From sequence record PV357171.2: a stretch of 64,000 bases of DNA, one strand, 5' to 3'. The first letter of the stretch is position 1. Each line of letters begins with the position of its first letter. A program made the translations under genes and the position numbers. The notes under the pieces are model-generated. The model saw only the letters and a program-made list of their open reading frames with translations, did not search any database and was not told where the DNA came from. This document shows, piece after piece, positions 29,597 through 63,580 of this stretch. This stretch comes from a phage.

Positions 29597-30364
29597 TTAT
29601 TCAGCAGCCGCAGCTTTTGCATCCAGTTTAGCACGCTTAGCGGCACCATCATAGTCCTTAGCAACCAGACCACGACGAGACAGCATAGATTTAACACCGC
29701 GCTCAGATTTACCAGTTTTCTCAGCGATCTCAGCAACAGTCATGTTAACCAGATCCAGACCTTCTAACAGATCTTCACGAGTTTTAGCACTCGAGGTTTC
29801 CTGTACCGGCATAGCGGCGATACGACCTTCACGAAGCAGACTCAGAGCTTTACCACGGATCTGCTTGATATTACGACCGAAGTGAGCAGCGATAGCTTCA
29901 ATAGTAGCACCAGCAACAACCTGATTAACAAAATCAGTTTCTTCATCCGGAGTGAAGGAACGAACAGCAGCAGCTTTTTCAGTTGGTTTAACAGAAGCGG
30001 TCATTTCCAGACTCAGGATCTTACCCTGTACCTGCTTAGCACCGAACTGACCACCAGCTACAGCAGCAGCGATTTCAGCATAGGTATACTGACCAGCATG
30101 AGCGTTCAGGAAATCAACCAGTTCAGCTTCCTGCTCAGGAGTCCACGGAGATTTCTGCACTTCGTTAGCTTTCTGTACTTCAAAACCTTCTTTACGCAGT
30201 TTAGAGCCAACAGAGCGGGCAGTAACATCTTTGCCAGTTTCAGCAGCCAGTTCAGCAGCAATAGCAGCTACTTGTTCTTGAGAGATTACAGCAACACCCA
30301 GAGCAGTGGCTTTTGCTTTCAGAGACTCGGTTACACCTTCTACGTTCCAGTTCAGTTTAGACAT
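29597..30364 (-). CDS. putative DNA-binding protein (D5-like position)
   Basis: 255-aa Ala/Lys-rich ORF with internally repeated helix-rich segments; call by synteny. Confidence 0.4.
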   Translation of the reverse strand: MSKLNWNVEGVTESLKAKATALGVAVISQEQVAAIAAELAAETGKDVTARSVGSKLRKEGFEVQKANEVQKSPWTPEQEAELVDFLNAHAGQYTYAEIAAAVAGGQFGAKQVQGKILSLEMTASVKPTEKAAAVRSFTPDEETDFVNQVVAGATIEAIAAHFGRNIKQIRGKALSLLREGRIAAMPVQETSSAKTREDLLEGLDLVNMTVAEIAEKTGKSERGVKSMLSRRGLVAKDYDGAAKRAKLDAKAAAAE

Positions 30365-31136
30365 TATTATTTTTCTCCAATAGTTCTTTAATCGACAGGA
30401 TTTCTATCCCATTCGTTTCGGCTTTCTTATAAGATGAGGAAGAACGTTTTGATTCATCCTCACAGATCAGGTATTTGACGTCTTTGGTAACGGATTTCTT
30501 AACCGTATATCCTAGACCTTCTAAATAGTTTGTTGCATCCGTTCTATTTGCAAAATCTTGCAAAGATCCGGTAATACATACCGTTATTCCGTTTGGTTGG
30601 GCTACTAGACCATCAGTGATGATGACCTCAGCTTTAGCACCTTTAATACCAGTTGTGAATTTCCACGGTAATTCGATAACATCCTTGCCTTGTGGGGAAT
30701 TTAGCCAGGCTTTATAATTTTCTCCAGCCTTGCCGTCAGCCTTCACATCATGGAAGCTAGTGCAATTTTGGGATAATTTCTTTGCTGCAACCTCTCCGAT
30801 TAGAGGGATTCCTAAAGAACCGAGAACTGAACCAAAGTCAATGTCTCCGCGAACTTTAGTATTTAATTCGCTAATTAACTTAGCGGCAACCTTGCTACCC
30901 ACGGCTCTAACCAAATCTTCTTCGGTTAGGTAAAATAGTTCTGAAATCTTCGTCAGCTCCAGCTTCTCAATAGTTTTTGGACCAAAGCCCTTTAACTTCA
31001 TTTTTGAACAGAAGTTCTCAATTAACTTACTTGATTGCGCTGGACAGTTGGACTTATTCCGACAAAATAATTGTCCGTTGACAAGATCTAGCTTAGAACC
31101 ACAAGAGGGACATTGTGTTGGAATTTCGATTTTCAT
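30357..31136 (-). CDS. NAD-dependent DNA ligase, C-terminal subunit (Zn-finger and HhH domains)
   Basis: CPSCGSKL...FCRN...C Zn-finger typical of LigA plus helix-hairpin-helix region; ATG at 31136 one codon inside the TTG of the ORF track. Confidence 0.7.
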   Translation of the reverse strand: MKIEIPTQCPSCGSKLDLVNGQLFCRNKSNCPAQSSKLIENFCSKMKLKGFGPKTIEKLELTKISELFYLTEEDLVRAVGSKVAAKLISELNTKVRGDIDFGSVLGSLGIPLIGEVAAKKLSQNCTSFHDVKADGKAGENYKAWLNSPQGKDVIELPWKFTTGIKGAKAEVIITDGLVAQPNGITVCITGSLQDFANRTDATNYLEGLGYTVKKSVTKDVKYLICEDESKRSSSSYKKAETNGIEILSIKELLEKNNNV

Positions 31137-31166
31137 CAAATTTCTTCCTTATCAATTTATATAAAT

Positions 31167-31340: not shown

Positions 31341-32315
31341 TTAATCGTATACTCGCTCTACTATGCACGGGATTACACCACCAGCACGAATCACTCGAAT
31401 CTGGCAACCGATCTCTAGATCAAGAGAGTTAATATAATCAACGTTATTAAGAGTCGCTTTAACAATTGTAGCGTCATCAATAATTACCGGTTCGAAATAT
31501 CCAACAGGAGTTACTTTACCAGAAGCCCCTACCTGCCACTCAACTTTGAGAAGAGTTGTAATTTCGCCTTCTTCATCTTGTTTAATTGCATAAGCACCGC
31601 GAGGATGTTTATTCGTCCAACCTTCACGGAAGAATTTATTGTTGTCATTAATACGAACAACTTTACCATCCGTTGGATACCAGTTGAAGTAGTTTTTAAT
31701 GTTCATTACAGTGATGAAATCTTCGTTAGCCAACCAAGACATATCATCTAAATAAGAACCTGTAATACCTACAGAATCTTCTGAACACTGAATACCATAA
31801 GCTACAAAGATTAATCCACCTTCCGCAATACGTTCGATGAAATCATCTTCTTCTTTTAAGTTAATAGCACCTGAAGCGTAGTTACGTTTGTTTTCTACTT
31901 CTTTAGTGATAAGAACTTCACCCGTGATTTGAGTTGGTACTTTTTGGGAAATCTTTTTCGGGATGTTCAGCAATCTAACGTTGCTTGTGACATCATTCCC
32001 TAGAATACCATTACCACGAGTTAACGCTTGAACAAACGTTCCGTCGATGTACAACAGAGAAATTGCGCAACCGTCTAGCTTATCAGTTTCTACGTCTTCA
32101 AGAGTAGTGAAGGGGGCTTTATCACCACGATCGAAGTAAACTTTTTGTAAAGAATACATACGATACAGATGTGGGATATCACCTTTCGGGCCGATAGCAT
32201 CTTCCGCCGTTGGGAAACGTTTTAACAGACGGTCATATTCTTCATCAGATATTAAAGACATACCCTGATAATATGCTTCTTGACAGCGTTTAATAAAGTC
32301 TTTTACATTAGTCAT
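31341..32315 (-). CDS. NAD-dependent DNA ligase, N-terminal adenylation/OB subunit
   Basis: KxDG adenylation motif (TDKLDGCAISL) and downstream nucleotidyltransferase motifs; ends with a stop before the Zn-finger part. Confidence 0.8.
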   Translation of the reverse strand: MTNVKDFIKRCQEAYYQGMSLISDEEYDRLLKRFPTAEDAIGPKGDIPHLYRMYSLQKVYFDRGDKAPFTTLEDVETDKLDGCAISLLYIDGTFVQALTRGNGILGNDVTSNVRLLNIPKKISQKVPTQITGEVLITKEVENKRNYASGAINLKEEDDFIERIAEGGLIFVAYGIQCSEDSVGITGSYLDDMSWLANEDFITVMNIKNYFNWYPTDGKVVRINDNNKFFREGWTNKHPRGAYAIKQDEEGEITTLLKVEWQVGASGKVTPVGYFEPVIIDDATIVKATLNNVDYINSLDLEIGCQIRVIRAGGVIPCIVERVYD

Positions 32316-40813: not shown

Positions 40814-40982
40814 TTTTGTTCCTTTCTAAGAACGTATCATACTCAACCGTATCAACATATATGACGCCATAGTCATCGGATTTATAGTCCATTTCCCATA
40901 ACTCACATCGATAGCACCAACTACCATCTGCCCATACAAATATATCATCGGGATGTGTATATACAGATTTAACTATGGACAT
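40800..40982 (-). CDS. hypothetical protein
   Basis: 60-aa ORF overlapping neighbours. Confidence 0.3.
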   Translation of the reverse strand: MSIVKSVYTHPDDIFVWADGSWCYRCELWEMDYKSDDYGVIYVDTVEYDTFLERNKNGNK

Positions 40983-41805
40983 ATCTGTTTACCTTGCTTC
41001 TCGACACATAAGGTCTACCCTCTAAATGAGCTTCTACACGAGCAATAAAATCAGGATCACTGAAAGCATCTACCGCACCTTTACTCCAGTAAGGGATACC
41101 ACGTTCTTCCAGCTGGTACATCTCACTACGAGTCATACCTTGATAGCCCGGTTCTGCCGCTAGGCCACTATCATAGTAGTTAACAACCATAAGTTTCGCA
41201 GCAGTCAAATTAAGAACAGGAAATAATTCCCAGTAGAAGTTAATTACTTGGTTAGAGCAACCAACCACAATGATCATATCTTGACTGGTAATACCATCAA
41301 AAACATTATACATTTCTGCGTATGCAGGAGCATGTTCTCCAAAGAAGATTACATTAGGTTTAACCCATTTATAATCATCTGGATCAATAGAATTATACCC
41401 TACATCAATAATCCGTTTATTGCTACTATTGTAGCTATCAGCTACAACAACCTCTTTTAAATATCCGTGAATGTGCAGAATGTCACTATGTGGAACACCA
41501 GCACGCTCAATAAGGTCATCAACGTTGGTAGTCAAGTTTACTACTTGACCTGGGTATTGTTTATACCATTCACCAATACGCAAATGCGCAAGATTGGGTT
41601 CAACAGTTTTTAGCTCTTCACGACGCTTGTTGTAAAACATATGGGTTTTATGATAAAAATTACCACGAAAGGCATGAATATTACATACTTCTTCTAGATC
41701 ATAATCATCCCACAATGCTTTACCACTAGCAGTATCAGTACGGAAGGCTCGTACACCACTTTCAACGCTCAAACCTGCACCGCTAATAATAATTAATCTA
41801 CGCAC
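40969..41805 (-). CDS. Sir2-family (sirtuin-like) NAD-dependent protein
   Basis: GAGLSVESGVRAFR (sirtuin GAGIS..SGIP.FR), TTNVDDLIERAG, HIHG catalytic His, VIFFGE and VVGCS blocks; no Zn-ribbon cysteines. Confidence 0.65.
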   Translation of the reverse strand: MRRLIIISGAGLSVESGVRAFRTDTASGKALWDDYDLEEVCNIHAFRGNFYHKTHMFYNKRREELKTVEPNLAHLRIGEWYKQYPGQVVNLTTNVDDLIERAGVPHSDILHIHGYLKEVVVADSYNSSNKRIIDVGYNSIDPDDYKWVKPNVIFFGEHAPAYAEMYNVFDGITSQDMIIVVGCSNQVINFYWELFPVLNLTAAKLMVVNYYDSGLAAEPGYQGMTRSEMYQLEERGIPYWSKGAVDAFSDPDFIARVEAHLEGRPYVSRSKVNRYVHS

Positions 41806-42561: not shown

Positions 42562-44388
42562 TTACTTAAGATTTAAGTGTTTTACTCTACCAAGTACTTC
42601 TTTTTGTTTCCCAGAATTGAAAGGCCTACTGCCCGGGGATCCCAGGTACCCGCAAACCCTACGTGTAACCTCTATTTCTTCAGATCCACAACTCGGACAT
42701 ACAAACCCACGTTCAGAGGCAACAGATTCACCCATATACCCACAGTTGAAGCACTCATCAATTGGTATATTAACACCAATATAATGACTACATTCTAGTC
42801 CCTTATCTACTACGTATTCAAGAGCTTTATGGAACTTTTTCATTTGTGGTAGTTCCACAAACGATATATTACCACCATTAGCTATTTTGGTGAAATGAGC
42901 TTCATACTCAAATTTAGTATCCGGAGCTACCTTCTCCCTTACGTCCAAATGATGACTATTAGTGAGATAGCCTTTATCTGTTAGCCAAGAATACTCAGGG
43001 AACCTACGTTCCAGTAGTTTATTAAAGCGATTACATAGAGACTCACTAGGAGTAGCATACAAGCTAAACCCAAGATTAGTCTCATTAGCTTTAACTTCGC
43101 AACGATTTTTTAGGTGAGTAAGAACTTCCTCTGTAAATTCAATACAGTCCCTATGAGTCTGCGGTAAACTAAACATTATTTGGCACATCTCATAGACCCC
43201 AATATACCCAAGAGATACAGAAGATCTACCCTCAAAAATTGGCCATACATACTCTTCCCTATCTAAACGCACACCAAAACCACCGTGCATATAAAGAATA
43301 GGGGCTTGTTTAGCCTTCACTTTCTTAAGTCTATCCAAGAAAAAATCATGAGCTTCAAAAGCCTCATCCACATATTTGTCCAGAATATCCCAGAAATCTT
43401 CAAAAACCCCATCTGCCTCAGCAGCAACCATAGGTAGATTAATAGACACTACACCTAAATTATTGCGCCCTGCAATTTCTCCGGAGGGGATAGCAGATAA
43501 AAAGCTACGACAACCCATAGGGGCTTTAAAATCACCAGTAACAGCTATAACTTTCTCATAGCTTAAATAGTCTGGGTACATACGGGTAGCAGAACACTCA
43601 AGTGCTAGCTGTTTTATATCATAGTTAGGATCGCCTGGATTTTTATTTAACCCTTCTTTAACTGAGAATACTAGTTTAGGGAAGATAGGGGTTGACTCGG
43701 CAGCACCTAAACCTTTAATACGATTTTGGAGGATGGCTTTCTGAATCATCCTTTCCTCCCACTCCTGACCTAATCCAAAGCCAAGCGTAACAAAAGGGGT
43801 CTGCCCGTTAGAGTTAAATAATGAATTAGTTTCATACTCTAGAGCTTGGAATGCATCATAACACTCTTTTTCAGTAAGCTCAGTAGCATACACAGCAGCT
43901 TTTCTTTCATCCTTGAGCCAACGTAGCCCACGACCCAGATGTTTATTGTAAGACTTTCTGACATACGGGGCTAGAACCTCGTCGATACGATCAATAGAGG
44001 TACCACCATACTGAGCACCAGATACTTGGGCAATAATCTGAGCAGTGATTGCACATGCAGTAGTTATGGATTTAGGAGTTTCAATATTTGCATTACCGAT
44101 TTTAGTACCATTCTTCAGCATGCCCCCCAGATCTACTAAACAACAGTTGGTGTACCCTTGTGCTCTGTAGTCCATGTCATGAATGTGTATTTTACCTAGA
44201 TTATGCGCGTCTAACAGGTGTTTAGGTAATTCTTGCGATACTAAATACTTGTTAATTTCCCCAGCTAATAAGTCCCTTTGAGTATGGAACATCTCACTAG
44301 GCTTATTAGCATTATTATGTTGTAAGTCTTTATCCGCAGTTAGAGTGAGCAGACCTTTGCAATTTTCAATTAATTCATTCTCTGTCAT
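42562..44388 (-). CDS. nrdD: anaerobic ribonucleoside-triphosphate reductase (class III)
   Basis: C-terminal CxxC...CxxC zinc site (CFNC...CPSC) and glycyl-radical motif RVCGYLGS. Confidence 0.8.
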   Translation of the reverse strand: MTENELIENCKGLLTLTADKDLQHNNANKPSEMFHTQRDLLAGEINKYLVSQELPKHLLDAHNLGKIHIHDMDYRAQGYTNCCLVDLGGMLKNGTKIGNANIETPKSITTACAITAQIIAQVSGAQYGGTSIDRIDEVLAPYVRKSYNKHLGRGLRWLKDERKAAVYATELTEKECYDAFQALEYETNSLFNSNGQTPFVTLGFGLGQEWEERMIQKAILQNRIKGLGAAESTPIFPKLVFSVKEGLNKNPGDPNYDIKQLALECSATRMYPDYLSYEKVIAVTGDFKAPMGCRSFLSAIPSGEIAGRNNLGVVSINLPMVAAEADGVFEDFWDILDKYVDEAFEAHDFFLDRLKKVKAKQAPILYMHGGFGVRLDREEYVWPIFEGRSSVSLGYIGVYEMCQIMFSLPQTHRDCIEFTEEVLTHLKNRCEVKANETNLGFSLYATPSESLCNRFNKLLERRFPEYSWLTDKGYLTNSHHLDVREKVAPDTKFEYEAHFTKIANGGNISFVELPQMKKFHKALEYVVDKGLECSHYIGVNIPIDECFNCGYMGESVASERGFVCPSCGSEEIEVTRRVCGYLGSPGSRPFNSGKQKEVLGRVKHLNLK

Positions 44389-45046
44389 TGATTATTTCCT
44401 CGATAAACCTTGCTACTATTTCTGGCTCAATACTAAAAAATTCTGTAGCACCATCAAAATCTTTGTACTGACAATTATATTCCTTAAACTGTAAATGGGC
44501 CTCTCTTTCAATACGCATAGCTTTTGATCTATCTGAAAAGCTATATTCCTTAAATATTTTTAAATCATGTATGTTAGAAGAAGTTTTAATATCTCTGAGT
44601 CTATCTTTAGTTCTGCTAGACACCCCTATTTTGGTTCCCACACTACTTATTAAAATATATACGTTAGTAGGATAATTATCCTTCTCTAATAAACATATAG
44701 GACAACCAGAATTATGATTTCTAACACTATCAAGTGTAGACTCCCATCTATGATTATTCTCACAGCTGAACATAATTTTACTCTTAGAATTGATGTATTT
44801 ACCTTCCATCTTTATTCCACGAGCAGCTAAGGATTCATTTACCTCTTTAAGATCTAAAGTACGACTAGCACAATAAGGGCAACCTCTCCCACCTTTTACA
44901 TTATCTACTCTAGCCTCCCAGATATGTCCATTAGAGCACTTAAATACAGCATTGGATTTAGCTGATATATACGTGCTTAGCATAATTATTCCTCTGGGAG
45001 CAAGTGTTAAGTTCACATCTTCTGTAGTTATTTTCTTTCTTACCAT
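44375..45046 (-). CDS. T5orf172/GIY-YIG-like domain protein with N-terminal duplicated zinc ribbons
   Basis: Two C..H...C..C repeats, then NVYILISSVGTKIGVS..R block resembling the T5orf172 (GIY-YIG superfamily) domain. Confidence 0.5.
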   Translation of the reverse strand: MVRKKITTEDVNLTLAPRGIIMLSTYISAKSNAVFKCSNGHIWEARVDNVKGGRGCPYCASRTLDLKEVNESLAARGIKMEGKYINSKSKIMFSCENNHRWESTLDSVRNHNSGCPICLLEKDNYPTNVYILISSVGTKIGVSSRTKDRLRDIKTSSNIHDLKIFKEYSFSDRSKAMRIEREAHLQFKEYNCQYKDFDGATEFFSIEPEIVARFIEEIINDRE

Positions 45047-51973: not shown

Positions 51974-52006
51974 ATTTCCTATATGTATATTATAGGGGAT
52001 TTACTT

Positions 52007-52561
52007 ATGATTATAAAAGAAGGATGGACAAAAGAGTCCGCACGAGCTAGATTTATATACAACCCTGATACAGGGGAGATTTTTAACAGAGTAAATAGCG
52101 GACGTGCTAGAAAAGGAGAATTAGCCGGGTATATTGATAAATCTACGGGGTATGTTAGACTAGTATTATCTGGTAAAAGGATTAAAGGACATCAGCTAGC
52201 CTTCTTATATATGGAAGGCTATATACCTGATACCATAGACCATATTAATAGAATAAAATCAGATAATAAATGGACTAATCTAAGGGAATCATCGGCTCAA
52301 GAAAATGCTAGAAATATTAGGGCAAGAAGTAAATCGGGCTATTTAGGTGTTGGTTGGTATAAGCCAACCCAAAACTGGTGTGTTTATACTAAGGATAAAG
52401 ATGGAGTCCAAGTTAACGGAGGCTACTTTGCATACAAAGAACTAGAGTTAGCAGTTCAAAAGGCTAATGAACTTCGCTTACAGTTACATGGAGAAAACGC
52501 TGTTATAGAAGCTTTTGATTCCACAAAACCACTTCCCACATTAGAGGATCTTAATAAATGA
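52007..52561 (+). CDS. HNH homing endonuclease
   Basis: GYVRLVLSGKRIKGHQLAFLYMEGYIPDTIDHINRIKSDNKWTNLRE; ATG at 52007. Confidence 0.7.
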   Translation: MIIKEGWTKESARARFIYNPDTGEIFNRVNSGRARKGELAGYIDKSTGYVRLVLSGKRIKGHQLAFLYMEGYIPDTIDHINRIKSDNKWTNLRESSAQENARNIRARSKSGYLGVGWYKPTQNWCVYTKDKDGVQVNGGYFAYKELELAVQKANELRLQLHGENAVIEAFDSTKPLPTLEDLNK

Positions 52562-56663: not shown

Positions 56664-57485
56664 ATGGGTAAATTACAAAAACAAATACTACCACATATAG
56701 ATTATATTCGAGAAATTATAGAGTATAATCCTTATACTGGTAAATTATTTTATAAGCCTAATAAATACAAGAATAAAACTTGGCACACCCTATATGCTGG
56801 GAGAGAAATATGTAGTAAGAACTCTGATGGGTATATCAGAGTTAGTTTGCTCTTAGATAATAAACCCACAATTATTTATGGACACCGAATAGCGTGGTTG
56901 CTCCATTATGGTGAAGAGCCTCCTTATATGATCGACCATATAAATACCATACCGTGGGATAACAGAATTGTTAATCTAAGAGAGACAAATTTTAAGTTAA
57001 ATAGGATTAATACTAATAAAACCGTAGGTGTAGAACTCCTCCCCGAGGGTTTTGTGTATAGCATTACATTAGGTGGAAAGTTTTTCGTATCTCCTGGCTT
57101 CACCACTTTCGAACAAGCTAAAGGGGAAAGAGAAAAACTAGTAAATGGTTTATGTAATGCAGAAATTGGGAAGCAGACCAATATTCTAATAGACGATGTT
57201 AGAGATCTACCTGAAATGTCCATTATTTGTCGTACAGTTATAGGTGCGCTGGAACTATCAGATATGTTTAGTTTTACTGGTTCCTACCTATTTATGGACT
57301 CAGATCTAGGAGACCCAGAAGTACAAGGAAAAGACTTATTAGATTATATACTCTTTTTAGGTCAAAGACCTTTGAAAGTAGTTCTAGTAACATCCAACCC
57401 TGTTGACGCAGAGTACATGAGAGGTACTCTTACGTCTTATGGTTATCGAGAAAATCCCAATAGGTTAGAATATGACCTATTTTAA
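56664..57485 (+). CDS. HNH homing endonuclease with C-terminal extension
   Basis: GYIRVSLLLDNKPTIIYGHRIAWLLHYGEEPPYMIDHINTIPWDNRIVNLRE. Confidence 0.65.
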   Translation: MGKLQKQILPHIDYIREIIEYNPYTGKLFYKPNKYKNKTWHTLYAGREICSKNSDGYIRVSLLLDNKPTIIYGHRIAWLLHYGEEPPYMIDHINTIPWDNRIVNLRETNFKLNRINTNKTVGVELLPEGFVYSITLGGKFFVSPGFTTFEQAKGEREKLVNGLCNAEIGKQTNILIDDVRDLPEMSIICRTVIGALELSDMFSFTGSYLFMDSDLGDPEVQGKDLLDYILFLGQRPLKVVLVTSNPVDAEYMRGTLTSYGYRENPNRLEYDLF

Positions 57486-58015: not shown

Positions 58016-58186
58016 ATGAAGAACTTGATCGTCATTGGTGTTAACACTCGCGGTATTCGTACTACGAAAACTATTAAAACTTCTAACGTTGCTGAAATCA
58101 CTACGAACCCTAAAAAGTTTGATTTCGCCAAAGTCTCAGCAGTTATGACGGAGCAATCTTTTAACCAAGCGTTAGGACTGAAATAA
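58016..58186 (+). CDS. small hypothetical protein (56 aa), below ORF-track threshold
   Basis: ATG 7 nt after GAGAGGAAG and directly behind a family promoter; stop overlaps next ATG (TAATG). Confidence 0.45.
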   Translation: MKNLIVIGVNTRGIRTTKTIKTSNVAEITTNPKKFDFAKVSAVMTEQSFNQALGLK

Positions 58187-58629
58187 TGGAAGAGAATATT
58201 TTAGATGTTTTGCGTAGAGCTTTGCAGGATTCTAAGTTTAATGGTTCTGATAAAGAAGTCGCTAAAAGCTATCAGACCATAATCGGGGATCTTCAGCGTA
58301 TTGATAAAGATTTCATCACTTCTGAACAATTTGTGTCTTATCTCAAAGCTCAACTAAAAAGCATTAACCAGATGAAAGCTAAACTTCATGGTCAAGATCT
58401 TGATAGTTATAGCTTGCAGTCCGCTCAGTATGAATACATTCTAAATAAGTGGTTGCAGGAGTATCTGCCTCCTCAGTTATCTGATACTGAGATTCGTAAA
58501 TACTTTGCAGAATTAGTTAAGCTAAACCCTGGAATTACAAAAGGTATGCTGATGAAAGCGATTAAGGAAGAATTTCCTGGGCGTTATGATGGTGGTACTG
58601 CTGCTCAGATTGCTGGCGAATTTAATTAA
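58186..58629 (+). CDS. hypothetical protein
   Basis: 147-aa ORF. Confidence 0.45.
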   Translation: MEENILDVLRRALQDSKFNGSDKEVAKSYQTIIGDLQRIDKDFITSEQFVSYLKAQLKSINQMKAKLHGQDLDSYSLQSAQYEYILNKWLQEYLPPQLSDTEIRKYFAELVKLNPGITKGMLMKAIKEEFPGRYDGGTAAQIAGEFN

Positions 58630-58637
58630 AAATTTAC

Positions 58638-58666
58638 TTGCTAAATGCTTATAAATTCTGTATAAT
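58638..58666 (+). promoter_or_regulatory. early promoter driving ORF-free RNA region
   Basis: TTGCTA, 17 bp, TATAATATATTCATAAATT. Confidence 0.65.
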
Positions 58667-59463
58667 ATATTCATAAATTAGGGAACAGCGAGCCGATTAC
58701 GCTGAGTGCAGAATCCCAACCGGAGCGCATTGAATAGAGTCGGTGGGTTAGTTGTAAAACTAGTACACAGGGGGCGGCAATCCCGGTTAGTGGCTAGAAC
58801 GTGTAAAATGAGGCGTCTGAAACCTCTCCCCTAAACTCTTCTCTAATTTATAAATAGTGGGGTGTGGAAATCACTTATGTAGTAACACTGCCGTCCTAGT
58901 ATAATTGGTATTATCAAGCCGTAACTGGTGGAAGATGTAGGTTCGAATCCTACGGTCGGTAAGAACTGGATAACTGATGCTTTTAACGTAAAAGCTTCCG
59001 AGGTTAGTTGCGCACTGCCTAAACCACGCGGTAGTTGGTTCCAGACTAACCAACCAGTCTGCTGAATAGTTTTATTACGATTTAACTATGCCCAGGCTAA
59101 AGAAGAACTTTAGAAGGTATTCTAGGATAGTGAAGTTCTTTCTCCATATCGGAGTAGTTTTTCAAGCTATCCACAAAGTGGGAAATGCTGACATGAGAGA
59201 TGTCACTAATGGTGCACAATAGCACAGGTAATTCGCGATAACCCCTGTTGAGTAGCAGCAAAAGGCGGGAAGTCATGACCCCAAGCCTAACCGAGTCCTC
59301 AATATACCGCAGGACATAACCACTAAGTCCCCCTGACTTAAACTGGAAAATAATAGACGTTACTGTATTTTGTCTTGAAATACTTAATGAGTGAGACTTA
59401 TGACTCTCCCGGTATCGTCTGTATTTTTAAGAGTTTTTACGAGAGTTCTTAAAAATACTTAAA

Positions 59464-59535
59464 CGGGGTGTAGTCTAAGGGAGAGGCAGGAGTCTTCTAA
59501 ATTCCTTTATGCAGGTTCGAATCCTGTCACCTCGG
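59464..59535 (+). tRNA. tRNA-Arg (anticodon UCU)
   Basis: Hand-folded cloverleaf: acceptor CGGGGTG / CACCTCG, D-stem GTCT / AGGC, anticodon stem GGAGT / ATTCC with loop CTTCTAA, T-arm GCAGG-TTCGAAT-CCTGT, CCA encoded. Confidence 0.75.
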
Positions 59536-59572
59536 CCAATTTTATTAACTGTAGCTAAAACAAAGGAAATAT

Positions 59573-60520
59573 ATGTTTAATACTAAAAATATGAAAGAAC
59601 TGACTTCTGAGCAGAAAGTAATTCGTACTATTAAACGTTGGGGTATTGGTGCTGTAGTTGGTTTAGCAGGTTTAATCCTAGCTTTTAATTCATATACTGT
59701 TGTTCAAGACGGTACTGTTAAAACCCAGACTTTCCTGGGTAAAGTTGACCCTAGCCCAGTATTACCCGGCTTTCATATTGTAAATCCTTTTGCTTCTTTC
59801 GATACTTTTAGTACTAAAGATATTGCCCTAAAATTAGATAAACTTCAGGTTCCTAGCCAGGATAAGTTTAAATCCACTGTTGACCTGACTGTTATGTTGC
59901 AGTTTGATGGTTCTAAGGCACCAATTAACCGTATTAACGCAGGTACTCAGGATCAGGCGTTAGACAAGTATGTAACTGAAAAATTACTGTCTACTATTCG
60001 TGAGTTTGGTAAGTCTGTACCTAAAGCACAAGATTTGTTTGATGCTAAAATTCAGGCTCAATTGCAAACTGCAATTCAACAGGAAGTTGAAGAGTATGCA
60101 CGCCCATATGGTTACACAGTTAAGCAGGTATTCCTTCAGGATATTACTTTGCCACCGGTAATCATGGAACAGGTACAGAATACCAAAGTTCGTGAAGAGC
60201 AAGTTAATGCTGCGAAAGCTGAACTGGCCCGCGTTGAACAAGAAGCGCAGCAAAAGGTTAAACAAGCAGAAGCAGACCGTGAAGCTCGCAACAACCAAGC
60301 TATTGCTAATGAACGTGACGCAGATGCTAAACTGTACGCAGCTAAGAAAGAAGCTGAAGCTAACGCCGCATTGCAACGTACCATTACTCCTGAGATGATT
60401 CGCTGGAAGCAACTGGAAGTTGAAATGCTTCGTGCTGAAAAATACCAAGGTGGTGTACCGCAAACAGTAGTGGGAACTGGTTACGATGGCCAGATGATCA
60501 TGGATATGCGTAATAAGTAA
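59573..60520 (+). CDS. SPFH/band-7 (HflK/C-like) domain membrane protein
   Basis: N-terminal TM helix, then SPFH-type core and Ala/Glu/Gln-rich coiled coil; 315 aa. Confidence 0.5.
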   Translation: MFNTKNMKELTSEQKVIRTIKRWGIGAVVGLAGLILAFNSYTVVQDGTVKTQTFLGKVDPSPVLPGFHIVNPFASFDTFSTKDIALKLDKLQVPSQDKFKSTVDLTVMLQFDGSKAPINRINAGTQDQALDKYVTEKLLSTIREFGKSVPKAQDLFDAKIQAQLQTAIQQEVEEYARPYGYTVKQVFLQDITLPPVIMEQVQNTKVREEQVNAAKAELARVEQEAQQKVKQAEADREARNNQAIANERDADAKLYAAKKEAEANAALQRTITPEMIRWKQLEVEMLRAEKYQGGVPQTVVGTGYDGQMIMDMRNK

Positions 60521-60544
60521 TATCCGCATGTAATCTCTGAAGTA

Positions 60545-60582
60545 AGCCCTGTGTTCCCTGGAGAGCGCAGGGCTTTTCTGTA
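60545..60582 (+). terminator. rho-independent terminator
   Basis: Stem AGCCCTG / CAGGGCT with structured loop, then TTTTCTGTATTT. Confidence 0.55.
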
Positions 60583-60725
60583 TTTAAGGCAAAAGAAAAA
60601 GCCCATAAGTTATTCAACTAAGGTCTTTAGTATTTAATTCTTTAGAATCATATAATATTATTGCAGCAACAACGTGCTAACCTTAAGTGCCCTGCAATTT
60701 TCCTCTAAAAAGTTAAAAAATTCGA

Positions 60726-60754
60726 TTGCTTGAATGCTAAATTCTCTGTATAAT
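60726..60754 (+). promoter_or_regulatory. early promoter
   Basis: TTGCTT, 17 bp, TATAATATATTTATAAATTTGAGAGAGG. Confidence 0.65.
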
Positions 60755-60784
60755 ATATTTATAAATTTGAGAGAGGAATCAAAT

Positions 60785-61840
60785 ATGATTAAGACTGGTC
60801 TAGTAATTGGTAAGTTCGCACCATTAACGCGTGGTCATATTAACCTAATAAACACAGCAGCAACTATGTGTGAACGAGTTATTGTTGTAGTTAGTCATGA
60901 TAATCGTTGGCTGGATAAGCAGAACACACGTGATCAGGAAGTATTACAGTTAAAGAATCGACTTCGTTGGTTAGAACAAACTTACGCGGATATTGAGCAC
61001 ATTTCGGTAGAGTACATTATTGAAGATGATATTCCTGAATATCCGAATGGTTGGCCGGAATATGCTAGAATCCTTAATGAAAATTACGGACATTTGCCTG
61101 AGATCACCGTTTTCTCTAGCGAACTAGACTATGATGCAGAATATAAGAAATATCTGCCGAAGTTTGGTCATTATATTGTAGATTCTGATCGGACTCGTGT
61201 TCCAATCTCAGCTACAATGATTCGTAATGATCTTATGAAGTATTGGGAGTTTCTTCCTAGCTTAGTTCGTAAAGATTACGTGCGTAAGGTTGTAATCATT
61301 GGGACTGAAAGCTCGGGAAAGACTACTTTAACAAAATACCTTGCGAAGCTATACAACACTTCGTGGGTAGAAGAATATGGCCGAACGTATTGTGAAGTTG
61401 ATCTAGTTGGTAACGAAAATCTACTTACCAGTGAAGATTACAGTAAAATTGCGTTCAGACACAAAGAGCTAGAGTTTGAAGCAGAACGTACTGCAAATAA
61501 GATCATGTTTGTGGATACAAATGCTTTTATTACTGAGTTCTACCACAGACTTTATGAACATAGTAAGAACCCTGTGGTTACAGCAATTGCAAAAGTAGAA
61601 CATTACGATTTAGTAATTGTTCTAGCGCCTACTGTCAAGTGGGTAGATGATGATTTACGTATTAACTCCGATCGTTCAATTACTTCTGAACTGTTCGAGC
61701 AGATGAAGAAAGAATTTCCAAATCAGTTCCCTGAAGGGCGTACTGTTTACATCGACTCTCCGGACTACAAAGTTCGTATGGACGAAGCAGTAAACGCAGT
61801 AGACTGGCTGATTCATCACTTTAACGTTGGAGAGTTTTAA
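60785..61840 (+). CDS. nadR: NadR-like bifunctional NMN adenylyltransferase / ribosylnicotinamide kinase
   Basis: N-terminal GKFAPLTRGH (nucleotidyltransferase H/T-x-G-H) and C-terminal P-loop IGTESSGKTTL; ATG at 60785 after GAGAGG. Confidence 0.6.
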   Translation: MIKTGLVIGKFAPLTRGHINLINTAATMCERVIVVVSHDNRWLDKQNTRDQEVLQLKNRLRWLEQTYADIEHISVEYIIEDDIPEYPNGWPEYARILNENYGHLPEITVFSSELDYDAEYKKYLPKFGHYIVDSDRTRVPISATMIRNDLMKYWEFLPSLVRKDYVRKVVIIGTESSGKTTLTKYLAKLYNTSWVEEYGRTYCEVDLVGNENLLTSEDYSKIAFRHKELEFEAERTANKIMFVDTNAFITEFYHRLYEHSKNPVVTAIAKVEHYDLVIVLAPTVKWVDDDLRINSDRSITSELFEQMKKEFPNQFPEGRTVYIDSPDYKVRMDEAVNAVDWLIHHFNVGEF

Positions 61841-61841
61841 T

Positions 61842-62519
61842 ATGACTAACTATCTCGTAAATGACTTTAAAAACTGGAAACCTCTGGAATATCTGTGGCT
61901 GCTCATAGCGGTTGTCTTCATTAGTTTAGCAAACTATAATGGTACAGCTCTAGATTGGGCTACTGCAATAACCAATGTGGTTTGTGTTATTCTGGTTGCA
62001 AAAGGACGTGTTTCCAACTATATTTGGGGCTTAGTGGGTGTTCTTACATATGGTATTACAGCTTTAAACGCAGATCTTTATGGTAACGCTGCACTAAACC
62101 TGCTATACTACGTTCCTATGCAGTTTTATGGAATGTACTTATGGCATAAAAATAAACCAAGTAATCTGCCAGACGTTCCAACTAAGGTTCTGACTAAAGC
62201 TCAGGCTTTATTAACTCTTGGGATTCTAGCAGTAGCTACTCTAGGCTATGGCAGCTTCCTCGCTACCACAGCAGATCCGTTCCCAATGCTCGATGCATTT
62301 ACTGCGGTTGGTAGTGTAATTGCTATGTGGCTTATGGTCAAGCAGTATGCTGAACAATGGCTAATCTGGATTGCCATTAATATTGGTACTGTATACATTT
62401 GGTTTGTAACTGCTCAGTCTACAGGTGCTTCTTATGCAATCCTAGCAATGTGGCTGGTATTCTTTGGTAACTCTGTACTTGGAGCCTATAAAGGGTACTT
62501 TGTACGCGTTAACAAATAA
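61842..62519 (+). CDS. pnuC: PnuC-like nicotinamide riboside transporter
   Basis: About 226 aa, multiple predicted TM helices, Trp-rich motifs; immediately after NadR-like gene; ATG at 61842 after GGAGAG. Confidence 0.55.
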   Translation: MTNYLVNDFKNWKPLEYLWLLIAVVFISLANYNGTALDWATAITNVVCVILVAKGRVSNYIWGLVGVLTYGITALNADLYGNAALNLLYYVPMQFYGMYLWHKNKPSNLPDVPTKVLTKAQALLTLGILAVATLGYGSFLATTADPFPMLDAFTAVGSVIAMWLMVKQYAEQWLIWIAINIGTVYIWFVTAQSTGASYAILAMWLVFFGNSVLGAYKGYFVRVNK

Positions 62520-62526
62520 AATAGTT

Positions 62527-62552
62527 ATAGCCCTCAAAGCGAGGGCTATTAT
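62527..62552 (+). terminator. hairpin, terminator-like
   Basis: 9-bp stem ATAGCCCTC / GAGGGCTAT, loop AAAGC; weak U-run. Confidence 0.4.
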
Positions 62553-62566
62553 CCAGAAAATTTCAC

Positions 62567-62595
62567 TTGCTAAATGCCGAGATTTTCTGTATAAT
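62567..62595 (+). promoter_or_regulatory. early promoter driving tRNA pair
   Basis: TTGCTA, 17 bp, TATAATATATTTATAAATT. Confidence 0.65.
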
Positions 62596-62609
62596 ATATT
62601 TATAAATTC

Positions 62610-62701
62610 GGAAGATTAACCCTAATTGGTAAGGGAGCATCTTGCTAAGTTGCCAGTAGCTGTGGAAACACGGTGTATCGGTTCAAGTCCGATATCTTCC
62701 T
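62610..62701 (+). tRNA. type II tRNA, probably tRNA-Ser (anticodon GCU)
   Basis: Perfect 7-bp acceptor GGAAGAT / ATCTTCC, T-arm ATCGG-TTCAAGT-CCGAT, anticodon loop TTGCTAA, long variable arm with GAAA-capped stem, CCA encoded. Confidence 0.55.
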
Positions 62702-62709
62702 CCAAATTT

Positions 62710-62784
62710 GGTTCTCAAGCTCATTTGGTATGAGCCGTCGCCTCATAAGCGAAAGGTAGGTAGGTTCGAATCCTCCGGGAGCCA
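62710..62784 (+). tRNA. tRNA with CAU anticodon (Met, or Ile if lysidine-modified)
   Basis: Acceptor GGTTCTC / GGGAGCC (two G-U), D-stem GCTC / GAGC, anticodon loop CTCATAA, T-loop TTCGAAT, CCA encoded. Confidence 0.65.
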
Positions 62785-62804
62785 CCAGATAACTAGGAGA
62801 CTTT

Positions 62805-62993
62805 ATGTCACGCTTTCACGAAATTAAGCAAGAACTGGAAGAACTCGCCTGTCCTGAATGCTTTGGGACAGGTGAATGGAATGATGCTGAACCCGGGGAT
62901 ACGCGGTTTAACACTTACGTTTGCACTCACTGTGAAGGTACTGGTGTAAACCCTCTTTACACTATTTCTCTTTTTGTAGGGGTTGCTAAATAA
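62805..62993 (+). CDS. small zinc-ribbon protein
   Basis: 62 aa with CPEC...CTHC. Confidence 0.4.
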   Translation: MSRFHEIKQELEELACPECFGTGEWNDAEPGDTRFNTYVCTHCEGTGVNPLYTISLFVGVAK

Positions 62994-62999
62994 TGCACT

Positions 63000-63347
63000 T
63001 TGAAGATGATGAAAAAAGAAGCGTTCTACACTGTCCCAGCAATTAATCTGCTCGGTACTGTACTATTTCAGATTAAGTTCTACCTGCGAGACGACTACAC
63101 TGAAGTGGTAAACGCTATTGTACCTGAGTTCTTCGTAAATAATTTCCAAAAGGACTTTAAGTTCTTTATTGATGATGTTTACGATGGTGTGGTTGATCCG
63201 GCAGTAGCTCCAGCTATATACAATGTATTTAATTCTCTGCCAGATCTAGATTTTGATCTAGGACTTATTGAGTCTGGTGAGATTATCTGGGCACTTAATG
63301 TTCCAGTGACTGGATTCCCTGGTTGGCTGCAAGGTTACGAACTCTAA
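63000..63347 (+). CDS. hypothetical protein
   Basis: 115-aa ORF. Confidence 0.4.
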   Translation: MKMMKKEAFYTVPAINLLGTVLFQIKFYLRDDYTEVVNAIVPEFFVNNFQKDFKFFIDDVYDGVVDPAVAPAIYNVFNSLPDLDFDLGLIESGEIIWALNVPVTGFPGWLQGYEL

Positions 63348-63355
63348 CAAAATTT

Positions 63356-63438
63356 GGATCTGTGGTGGAATTGGCAATACACACCATGCTTAAAACGTGG
63401 CGCTTAAATGATTGAGGGTTCGAGCCCCTCCAGATCCA
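63356..63438 (+). tRNA. type II tRNA-Leu (anticodon UAA)
   Basis: Perfect 7-bp acceptor GGATCTG / CAGATCC, anticodon stem CCATG / CGTGG with loop CTTAAAA, T-arm GAGGG-TTCGAGC-CCCTC, CCA encoded. Confidence 0.75.
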
Positions 63439-63457
63439 CCAAATTAAGGAAGTAAAA

Positions 63458-63580
63458 ATGAAATCTATTAAGAAAGCACTGCGTAAATTTATGTATTGTC
63501 GTTTTCATAGCATCAAGGCTTCAACTAATGGTACTACTTACGATCGCTATGATCCTAAGTTTGGCTTACATTCTAAATAA
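63458..63580 (+). CDS. small hypothetical protein (40 aa), below ORF-track threshold
   Basis: ATG 6 nt after AAGGAAG directly after tRNA-Leu. Confidence 0.3.
   Translation: MKSIKKALRKFMYCRFHSIKASTNGTTYDRYDPKFGLHSK

Follow-up and report, generated by a model that had tools for sequence, protein, structure and literature searches.

Two adjoining genes close to the end of a 64,000-nucleotide stretch of phage DNA (sequence record PV357171.2; the whole stretch is called the window below) raise the question whether this phage carries an NAD+ salvage pathway of its own, whether such a pathway is already described for its phage family and what it would serve during infection. The original prediction, made from the letters alone, had placed a NadR-like and a PnuC-like gene at 60785-62519, and both open reading frames were found there, co-oriented and with nadR first (Table 1). 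Comparison with published systems made the pair, with high probability, an orthologue of the phage module NARP3 in a T5-like, Epseptimavirus-type phage, working by a stepwise rebuilding of NAD+.

Only one nucleotide separates the nadR stop from the pnuC ATG, and gene order, strand and this spacing were identical in TrudiRoth, beppo and CitS1. A 368-aa version of nadR, which the ORF finder begins at an ATG at 60734, was rejected, as this codon falls within the promoter, downstream of the -35 and upstream of the -10 hexamer. The real start of nadR was taken to be the ATG at 60785, which is preceded by a GAGG at a distance of 8 nt and is also used in the annotations of relatives. For pnuC, the ORF-finder start TTG 61827 was dropped in favour of ATG 61842 on the grounds of Shine-Dalgarno spacing, annotation in relatives and published residue numbering. 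Since the Shine-Dalgarno sequence of pnuC lies inside the end of nadR and the nadR stop precedes the pnuC ATG so closely, translational coupling of the two genes is plausible.

Table 1. Features of the nadR-pnuC locus and of the NAD-dependent ligase genes, with positions in the window
Feature	Position	Strand	Evidence or remark
NAD ligase subunit B	30357-31139	-	
NAD ligase subunit A	31341-32315	-	
Rho-independent terminator of upstream SPFH/band-7 gene	60544-60575	+	13-bp stem, then T-run; MFE -22.9 kcal/mol, z = -3.8
T5-type early promoter and 5' leader	60712-60782	+	Homology to T5 P15a
nadR promoter, -35 TTGCTT	60726-60731	+	17-nt spacer to -10
nadR promoter, -10 TATAAT	60749-60754	+	
nadR ribosome binding site GAGG	60773-60776	+	
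nadR-like gene	60785-61840	+	351 aa; ORF and domain matches
GKFAPLTRGH	60809-60838	+	Residues 9-18 of the NadR-like protein
TRGH	60827-60838	+	NadR aa 15-18; adenylyltransferase signature
ISATMIR	61205-61225	+	NadR aa 141-147; NMNAT motif
Walker A GTESSGKT	61301-61324	+	NadR aa 173-180
Walker B Asp244	61514-61516	+	NadR
NadR codon 290	61652-61654	+	GAT (Asp), relatives GGT (Gly); W-V-D-D-G-L-R motif, RNK domain
pnuC Shine-Dalgarno GGAGAG	61829-61834	+	Within the nadR 3' end; read directly from the sequence
nadR stop codon	61838-61840	+	1 nt ahead of the pnuC ATG
pnuC-like gene, predicted nicotinamide riboside transporter	61842-62519	+	225 aa, multi-pass membrane protein
Hairpin directly 3' of the pnuC stop	62527-62549	+	MFE -14.8 kcal/mol, z = -5.1
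Second early-promoter repeat copy, TTGCTA-17-TATAAT	62557-62611	+	T5 early-promoter alignment; downstream boundary of the module
tRNA-Ser	62610-62704		Driven by the second promoter copy

The strong early promoter assumed in front of the pair was borne out as a sequence element. The nadR promoter region was identical at 74 of 75 positions to the annotated promoter P15a of T5, identical to the region upstream of nadR in Bas30 (bas30_0086), and belongs to a 55-nt promoter repeat that occurs three times within 5 kb. A consensus promoter scan had missed it, as TTGCTT matches the -35 hexamer at 3 of 6 positions; it was recovered via the repeat family and the alignment with T5. On the upstream side the module is bounded by the terminator of an SPFH/band-7 gene, and in T5 a terminator is annotated beside the homologue of this gene, T5.080. 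The SPFH/band-7 gene itself was considered as a member of the module but excluded, as it ends in a terminator of its own and T5, which is devoid of the module, keeps it at 97% identity (tblastn). Downstream, the hairpin behind pnuC probably forms the 3' end of the nadR-pnuC transcription unit, termination on the plus strand being predicted; a T-run was found on the opposite strand only, and the sense strand has no U-tract. The second promoter copy aligns with the T5 early-promoter set including P15b, which is annotated upstream of T5 tRNA-Ser3(GCU). An Rfam search of 58600-63500 gave tRNAs only, neither an NAD+ nor another riboswitch was detected in the nadR leader. Judged by these sequence elements, nadR and pnuC make up a single predicted transcription unit under a T5-type early promoter.

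The NadR-like protein had been described as a 351-aa protein with the NMN adenylyltransferase (NMNAT) signature GKFAPLTRGH and a C-terminal P-loop kinase domain, and family profiles and the Walker A motif agree. Pfam placed CTP_transf_like on residues 7-147 and AAA_28 on residues 168-314; the published domain limits of the enzyme are aa 1-166 for NMNAT and aa 167-351 for RNK (PMC13464706). The NCBIfam model for NadR, NF005988, reached 244 bits (cut-off 201), while the score for TIGR01526 was 266 and thus under the trusted cut-off of 341. The protein belongs to PHROG 3462 ('nicotinamide-nucleotide adenylyltransferase', E = 9e-152) and aligned to the NadR of Haemophilus influenzae (1LW7) with 183.6 bits (E = 6e-53).

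Many database records are titled 'NadR transcriptional regulator', and a protein of this kind would control host NAD genes like the enterobacterial NadR rather than act as an enzyme. The probability of such a role is close to nil, however, as the protein begins with the NMNAT motif and its alignment to NF005988 covers model positions 65-407 of 411, which means that the N-terminal HTH is absent; Bas30_86, an enzyme introduced below, likewise has no HTH domain (PMC13464706). An identity with the trifunctional enterobacterial NadR, which includes the regulator, was rejected for the missing HTH, the DNA-binding domain.

Conservation of the catalytic motifs was counted in an alignment of the window NadR with 120 homologues of 43-98% identity (121 sequences), drawn from a search of 5.8 billion proteins; IMG/VR gave two close and two distant loci, a number too small for counting alleles. 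Across the homologues G17 and H18 were invariant, and position 15 was Thr in 94 and His in 25 of the 120. The H-x-G-H named in the original prediction therefore needs correction to T-R-G-H, while its catalytic G17 and H18 and the P-loop are kept. This is not the loss of a catalytic motif, since Thr15 is the majority residue of the clade and the active Bas30_86 has Thr as well. Among nucleotidyltransferases TxGH is an accepted form of the signature, as in pantetheine-phosphate adenylyltransferase (PPAT), and weak PPAT matches to the NadR-like protein were seen in PDB and profile searches. A143 and R147 of ISATMIR were invariant, the Walker A residues G173 and K179 and Asp244 invariant or nearly so.

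The gene behind nadR had been read as a PnuC-like protein with multiple transmembrane segments, and this reading held. Scores were well over the cut-offs for Pfam NMN_transporter (PF04973; 148.4 bits, cut-off 27.3) and TIGR01528 (118.9 bits, cut-off 42.45). A hydropathy scan revealed hydrophobic stretches over most of the protein length. Residues 9-215 aligned to the PnuC of N. mucosa (4QTN) with 115 bits (E = 3e-32), including a conserved EQWxxWxxxN segment.

Whether the pair was already described in this phage family had been left undecided from the letters; the answer is yes. The NadR-like protein is identical to Bas30_86 of Escherichia phage TrudiRoth (PDB 9X6F/9X6H) at 347 of 351 positions (98.9%), the PnuC-like protein to Bas30_87 of the same phage at 220 of 225 (97.8%), and TrudiRoth shares with the window the genus-level phage group, the gene order, the spacing and the promoter. 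Bas30_86 and Bas30_87 were named NARP3 (NAD+ reconstitution pathway 3) by Yan et al. (Sci Adv 2026, PMC13464706), where the crystal structures 9X6F and 9X6H are assigned to Bas30_86 by table and data statement. Earlier, Osterman et al. (bioRxiv 2024, 10.1101/2024.02.11.579819) had proposed that the NadR-PnuC operons of BASEL phages probably form an additional pathway. About 200 phage records carry the pair annotated as nadR/pnuC or equivalents. The system is thus already known, being widely annotated, hypothesised in 2024 and furnished with biochemistry and structures in 2026 (PMC13464706), and the window is one more carrier of NARP3, not a new system.

In vitro, Bas30_86 phosphorylates nicotinamide riboside (NR) to NMN and then adenylates NMN to NAD+; both domains are required, and Bas30_87 is a trimeric NR-binding transporter that imports NR and in which N45, Q94 and N180 are essential (PMC13464706). 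Co-expression of Bas30_86 and Bas30_87 restored NAD+ and gave an NR-dependent rescue of T7, lambda and Klebsiella phages from the defence systems Sir2-HerA and DSR1, the module being expressed from plasmids and the phages being heterologous (PMC13464706). All of the mutagenised residues are kept in the window, namely K10, F11, S37, E80, P84, G89, F110, S112, D115, V139, I141, E230 and D275 of NadR as well as N45, Q94 and N180 of PnuC. These experiments on proteins of 98-99% identity (PMC13464706) support, by analogy, the predicted import of NR, its conversion via NMN to NAD+ and the use of the pathway against NAD-depleting defences. In long-range comparisons dN/dS was 0.02-0.07 for both genes of the pair, indicating strong purifying selection.

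Transferred to the window, the pathway would begin early in infection with host sigma-70 reading the T5-type early promoter, which would yield a bicistronic nadR-pnuC mRNA. The PnuC-like membrane protein would import exogenous NR, the RNK domain of the HTH-less NadR-like enzyme would form NMN from NR and ATP, and the NMNAT domain would adenylate NMN to NAD+. In this way the pool that Sir2-HerA, DSR1 or similar host systems hydrolyse could be refilled and replication could continue. NAD+ depletion is a common bacterial strategy against phages, and pathways that rebuild NAD+ shape phage-strain infectivity, including that of therapeutic phages.

The copy in the window is not identical to its relatives. 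Compared with six of them, the 1.96-kb nadR-pnuC module has exactly four substitutions private to the window, NadR V160L, E271V and G290D and PnuC F21L, by which it also differs from the NARP3 of TrudiRoth; all four are non-synonymous, and private synonymous or intergenic changes were absent from the module in this comparison. Between the nadR genes of the window and beppo there were three non-synonymous and no synonymous differences. Such changes may reflect relaxed constraint, e.g., during laboratory passage, and leave an impaired or altered copy in which G290D cripples the kinase step. The third motif of the kinase, WVxDGxR in the vicinity of the lid, reads W-V-D-D-D-L-R in the window; Gly occupies position 290 in 112 of the 120 homologues and Asp in none, and a 39-mer centred on the D290 variant was not found in any of 50,697 phage records. 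By an approximate offset from the motif numbering of L. lactis NadR (PMC7221760), position 290 would map to the start of the kinase lid; a PDB search with the C-terminal 101 residues of NadR did not return the L. lactis structure 6GYE.

Other observations speak against an impairment and make it quite improbable. At position 290, N, K, E or S occurs in six natural homologues whose motif is otherwise intact (W286, D289, R292), hence Gly is not strictly required, and V160L and E271V fall in variable columns of the alignment. Both reading frames are intact, and every experimentally tested residue is conserved. Towards the tips dN/dS is raised also in the close relatives (0.17-0.47, against 0.02-0.07 in the long-range comparisons), so that the four non-synonymous tip changes are statistically unremarkable and not strong evidence of decay; a case for relaxed or positive selection built on the excess of private non-synonymous changes was not compelling for the same reason. 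By analogy with Bas30, the window copy would be active despite its private substitutions.

By sequence similarity, the window is from a T5-like phage (Demerecviridae, Epseptimavirus). A 20-kb query was 94-95% identical to Epseptimavirus genomes, e.g., that of Citrobacter phage CitS1, and a 2.2-kb query around the pair matched 402 phage records, the majority being Demerecviridae of Salmonella and Escherichia. NadR was present at an identity of at least 80% in about 207 records, whereas the surrounding early region is common to 570. This patchy distribution is in keeping with accessory genes that are of use under certain conditions. T5 itself illustrates the exchange: the slot between T5.080 and tRNA-Ser(GCU) holds T5.077-079 and T5.076, the latter driven by P15a, and tblastn over the whole 121,750-bp genome (E <= 1e-3) found no nadR or pnuC. 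With a different cargo behind P15a in T5, the module has to be seen as exchangeable cargo that uses a conserved promoter.

The absence from T5 bears on the purpose of the module. As an alternative to counter-defence, the original prediction had considered the supply of an NAD-dependent ligase in the same stretch, and this ligase was found, split into the subunits A and B, together with a Sir2-family protein. The module may accordingly raise NAD+ for these two consumers regardless of any host defence; driven by an early promoter, it would be expressed together with the replication genes, and the counter-defence data for NARP3 come from a plasmid-borne module and heterologous phages. However, T5 has the Sir2-family protein (94% identity by tblastn) and LigA (87%) without nadR and pnuC, which shows that the NAD-consuming enzymes of these phages do not depend on the pair, and the supply of the ligase is weakened as a motive. 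The patchy occurrence in the family and the rescue of phages from Sir2-HerA and DSR1 by the orthologous pair are likewise at odds with a housekeeping role, which we regard as rather unlikely. A conditional counter-defence is favoured, given that T5 does without the module though ligase and Sir2 are present, and by analogy with the published module it would be the function in the native phage. Highly improbable is the joint case of an allele with changed kinase-domain behaviour and a native module that mainly feeds the phage Sir2-family protein and NAD ligase instead of acting in counter-defence.

Bacterial salvage by NadR and PnuC has the same chemistry from NR via NMN to NAD+, and the two-domain NMNAT-RNK enzyme and the transporter fold are shared with the phage pair (1LW7, E. 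coli NadR 8X7F, L. lactis NadR 6GYE, 4QTN). Unlike the bacterial regulator NadR, the phage enzyme has no regulatory HTH domain, and its signature is TxGH instead of the HxGH of the enterobacterial and Haemophilus enzymes. The phage genes adjoin and would be transcribed together from an early promoter of the phage, whereas the E. coli genes are at separate loci. Among the phage pathways, NARP2 (NadV/Nampt and NatV, an NMNAT-Nudix protein, e.g., in Vibrio phage KVP40) also ends in the adenylation of NMN to NAD+ and follows the same counter-defence logic as NARP3; it starts, however, from nicotinamide and PRPP without imported NR and without a transporter, and the fusion partner of its NMNAT is a Nudix domain in place of the kinase of the window enzyme. 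NARP1 (Adps and Namat) equally rebuilds NAD+ to escape NAD-depleting defences, but with unrelated enzymes and substrates, converting ADPR to ADPR-PP and then adding nicotinamide. NARP1 thereby recycles breakdown products, while NARP3 takes up an external precursor. Beyond the T5-like phages, the order nadR-pnuC recurs in jumbo-phage contigs of about 300 kb, with identities of 60% and 47%.

The locus has a mosaic structure. Between about 60600 and 62200 the window hardly differs from beppo, but the SPFH gene and the last third of pnuC diverge by approximately 15%. A different lineage of this last third accounts for the PnuC positions 188, 208, 212 and 213, at which the window differs from TrudiRoth; in NadR, the window has V at position 109, where Bas30 has I. 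Relatives carry a 297-bp ORF behind pnuC (bas30_0088 in TrudiRoth), which is missing from the window. The one promoter copy that the window has there matches the sequence on either side of this ORF in beppo, which suggests a deletion between direct promoter repeats.

Compared with the related phage beppo, window positions 59560-62560 showed near-identity across about 60600-62200, whereas the upstream SPFH gene and the last third of pnuC diverged by about 15 %. This region is, as judged from the alignment, of mosaic ancestry. Since the identity to beppo ends before the last third of pnuC, one recombination junction has to be placed inside this gene. The promoter and leader of nadR were identical in 74 of 75 positions to the T5 promoter P15a. 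In T5, P15a drives T5.076, a Toprim-like gene unrelated to nadR, while in the window the near-identical promoter precedes nadR. The cargo between the SPFH gene and tRNA-Ser(GCU) varies among T5-like phages.

Relatives carry a 297-bp ORF (bas30_0088 in TrudiRoth, beppo_103 in beppo) between pnuC and tRNA-Ser that is missing in the window (62554-62611). In beppo, both flanks of this ORF match the single promoter copy of the window. A deletion between direct promoter repeats is expected to leave one copy matching both ORF flanks, thus the observed pattern fits such an event. Two short records, OR847496.1 and OR848805.1, labelled 'Listeria phage LM 4-11-1' and 'LM 4-14-1', had 98.6-98.9 % identity to the T5-like module; they are almost certainly T5-like sequences, either mislabelled or contaminating. 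The fragment OR847496.1 (L004) is collinear with the window over 60625-62800, a stretch spanning the site of the missing ORF, and therefore appears to share the deletion.

Features of the window and of related records
Feature	Position	Strand	Remarks
P15a counterpart of nadR promoter	T5 NC_005859 37802-37876 (T5 handle L013, 15803-15877)		aligned to window 60712-60782
OR847496.1 (L004)			2.7-kb assembly node, flag UNVERIFIED_ORG
OR848805.1			3.6-kb record
Sir2-family ORF	40969-41805	-	Pfam SIR2, E = 8e-25
tRNA match	58890-58961	+	Rfam, 35.5 bits (gathering score 29)
Homing-endonuclease-type ORF	56664-57485	+	early region, scattered
Homing-endonuclease-type ORF	51983-52561	+	early region, scattered
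Homing-endonuclease-type ORF	44375-45046	-	early region, scattered
YqeY-like ORF	58186-58629	+	weak Pfam match, 25.4 bits (below cut-off 27)

The Sir2-family ORF, 94 % identical to T5.102, encodes a putative NAD-consuming enzyme of the phage. Among the homing-endonuclease-type ORFs were two HNH_3 proteins, one of them also matching the cREC_REC domain; the third, a T5orf172/DUF4379 protein, adjoins nrdD. T5.081, the T5 counterpart of the YqeY-like ORF, is annotated as 'tRNA amidotransferase'. The Rfam tRNA match is flanked by an early-promoter copy (58628-58682) and tRNA-Arg; its score lies above the gathering threshold, and ARAGORN called no tRNA at this position. The surrounding region corresponds in T5 to the 'rnaX' stable RNA region.
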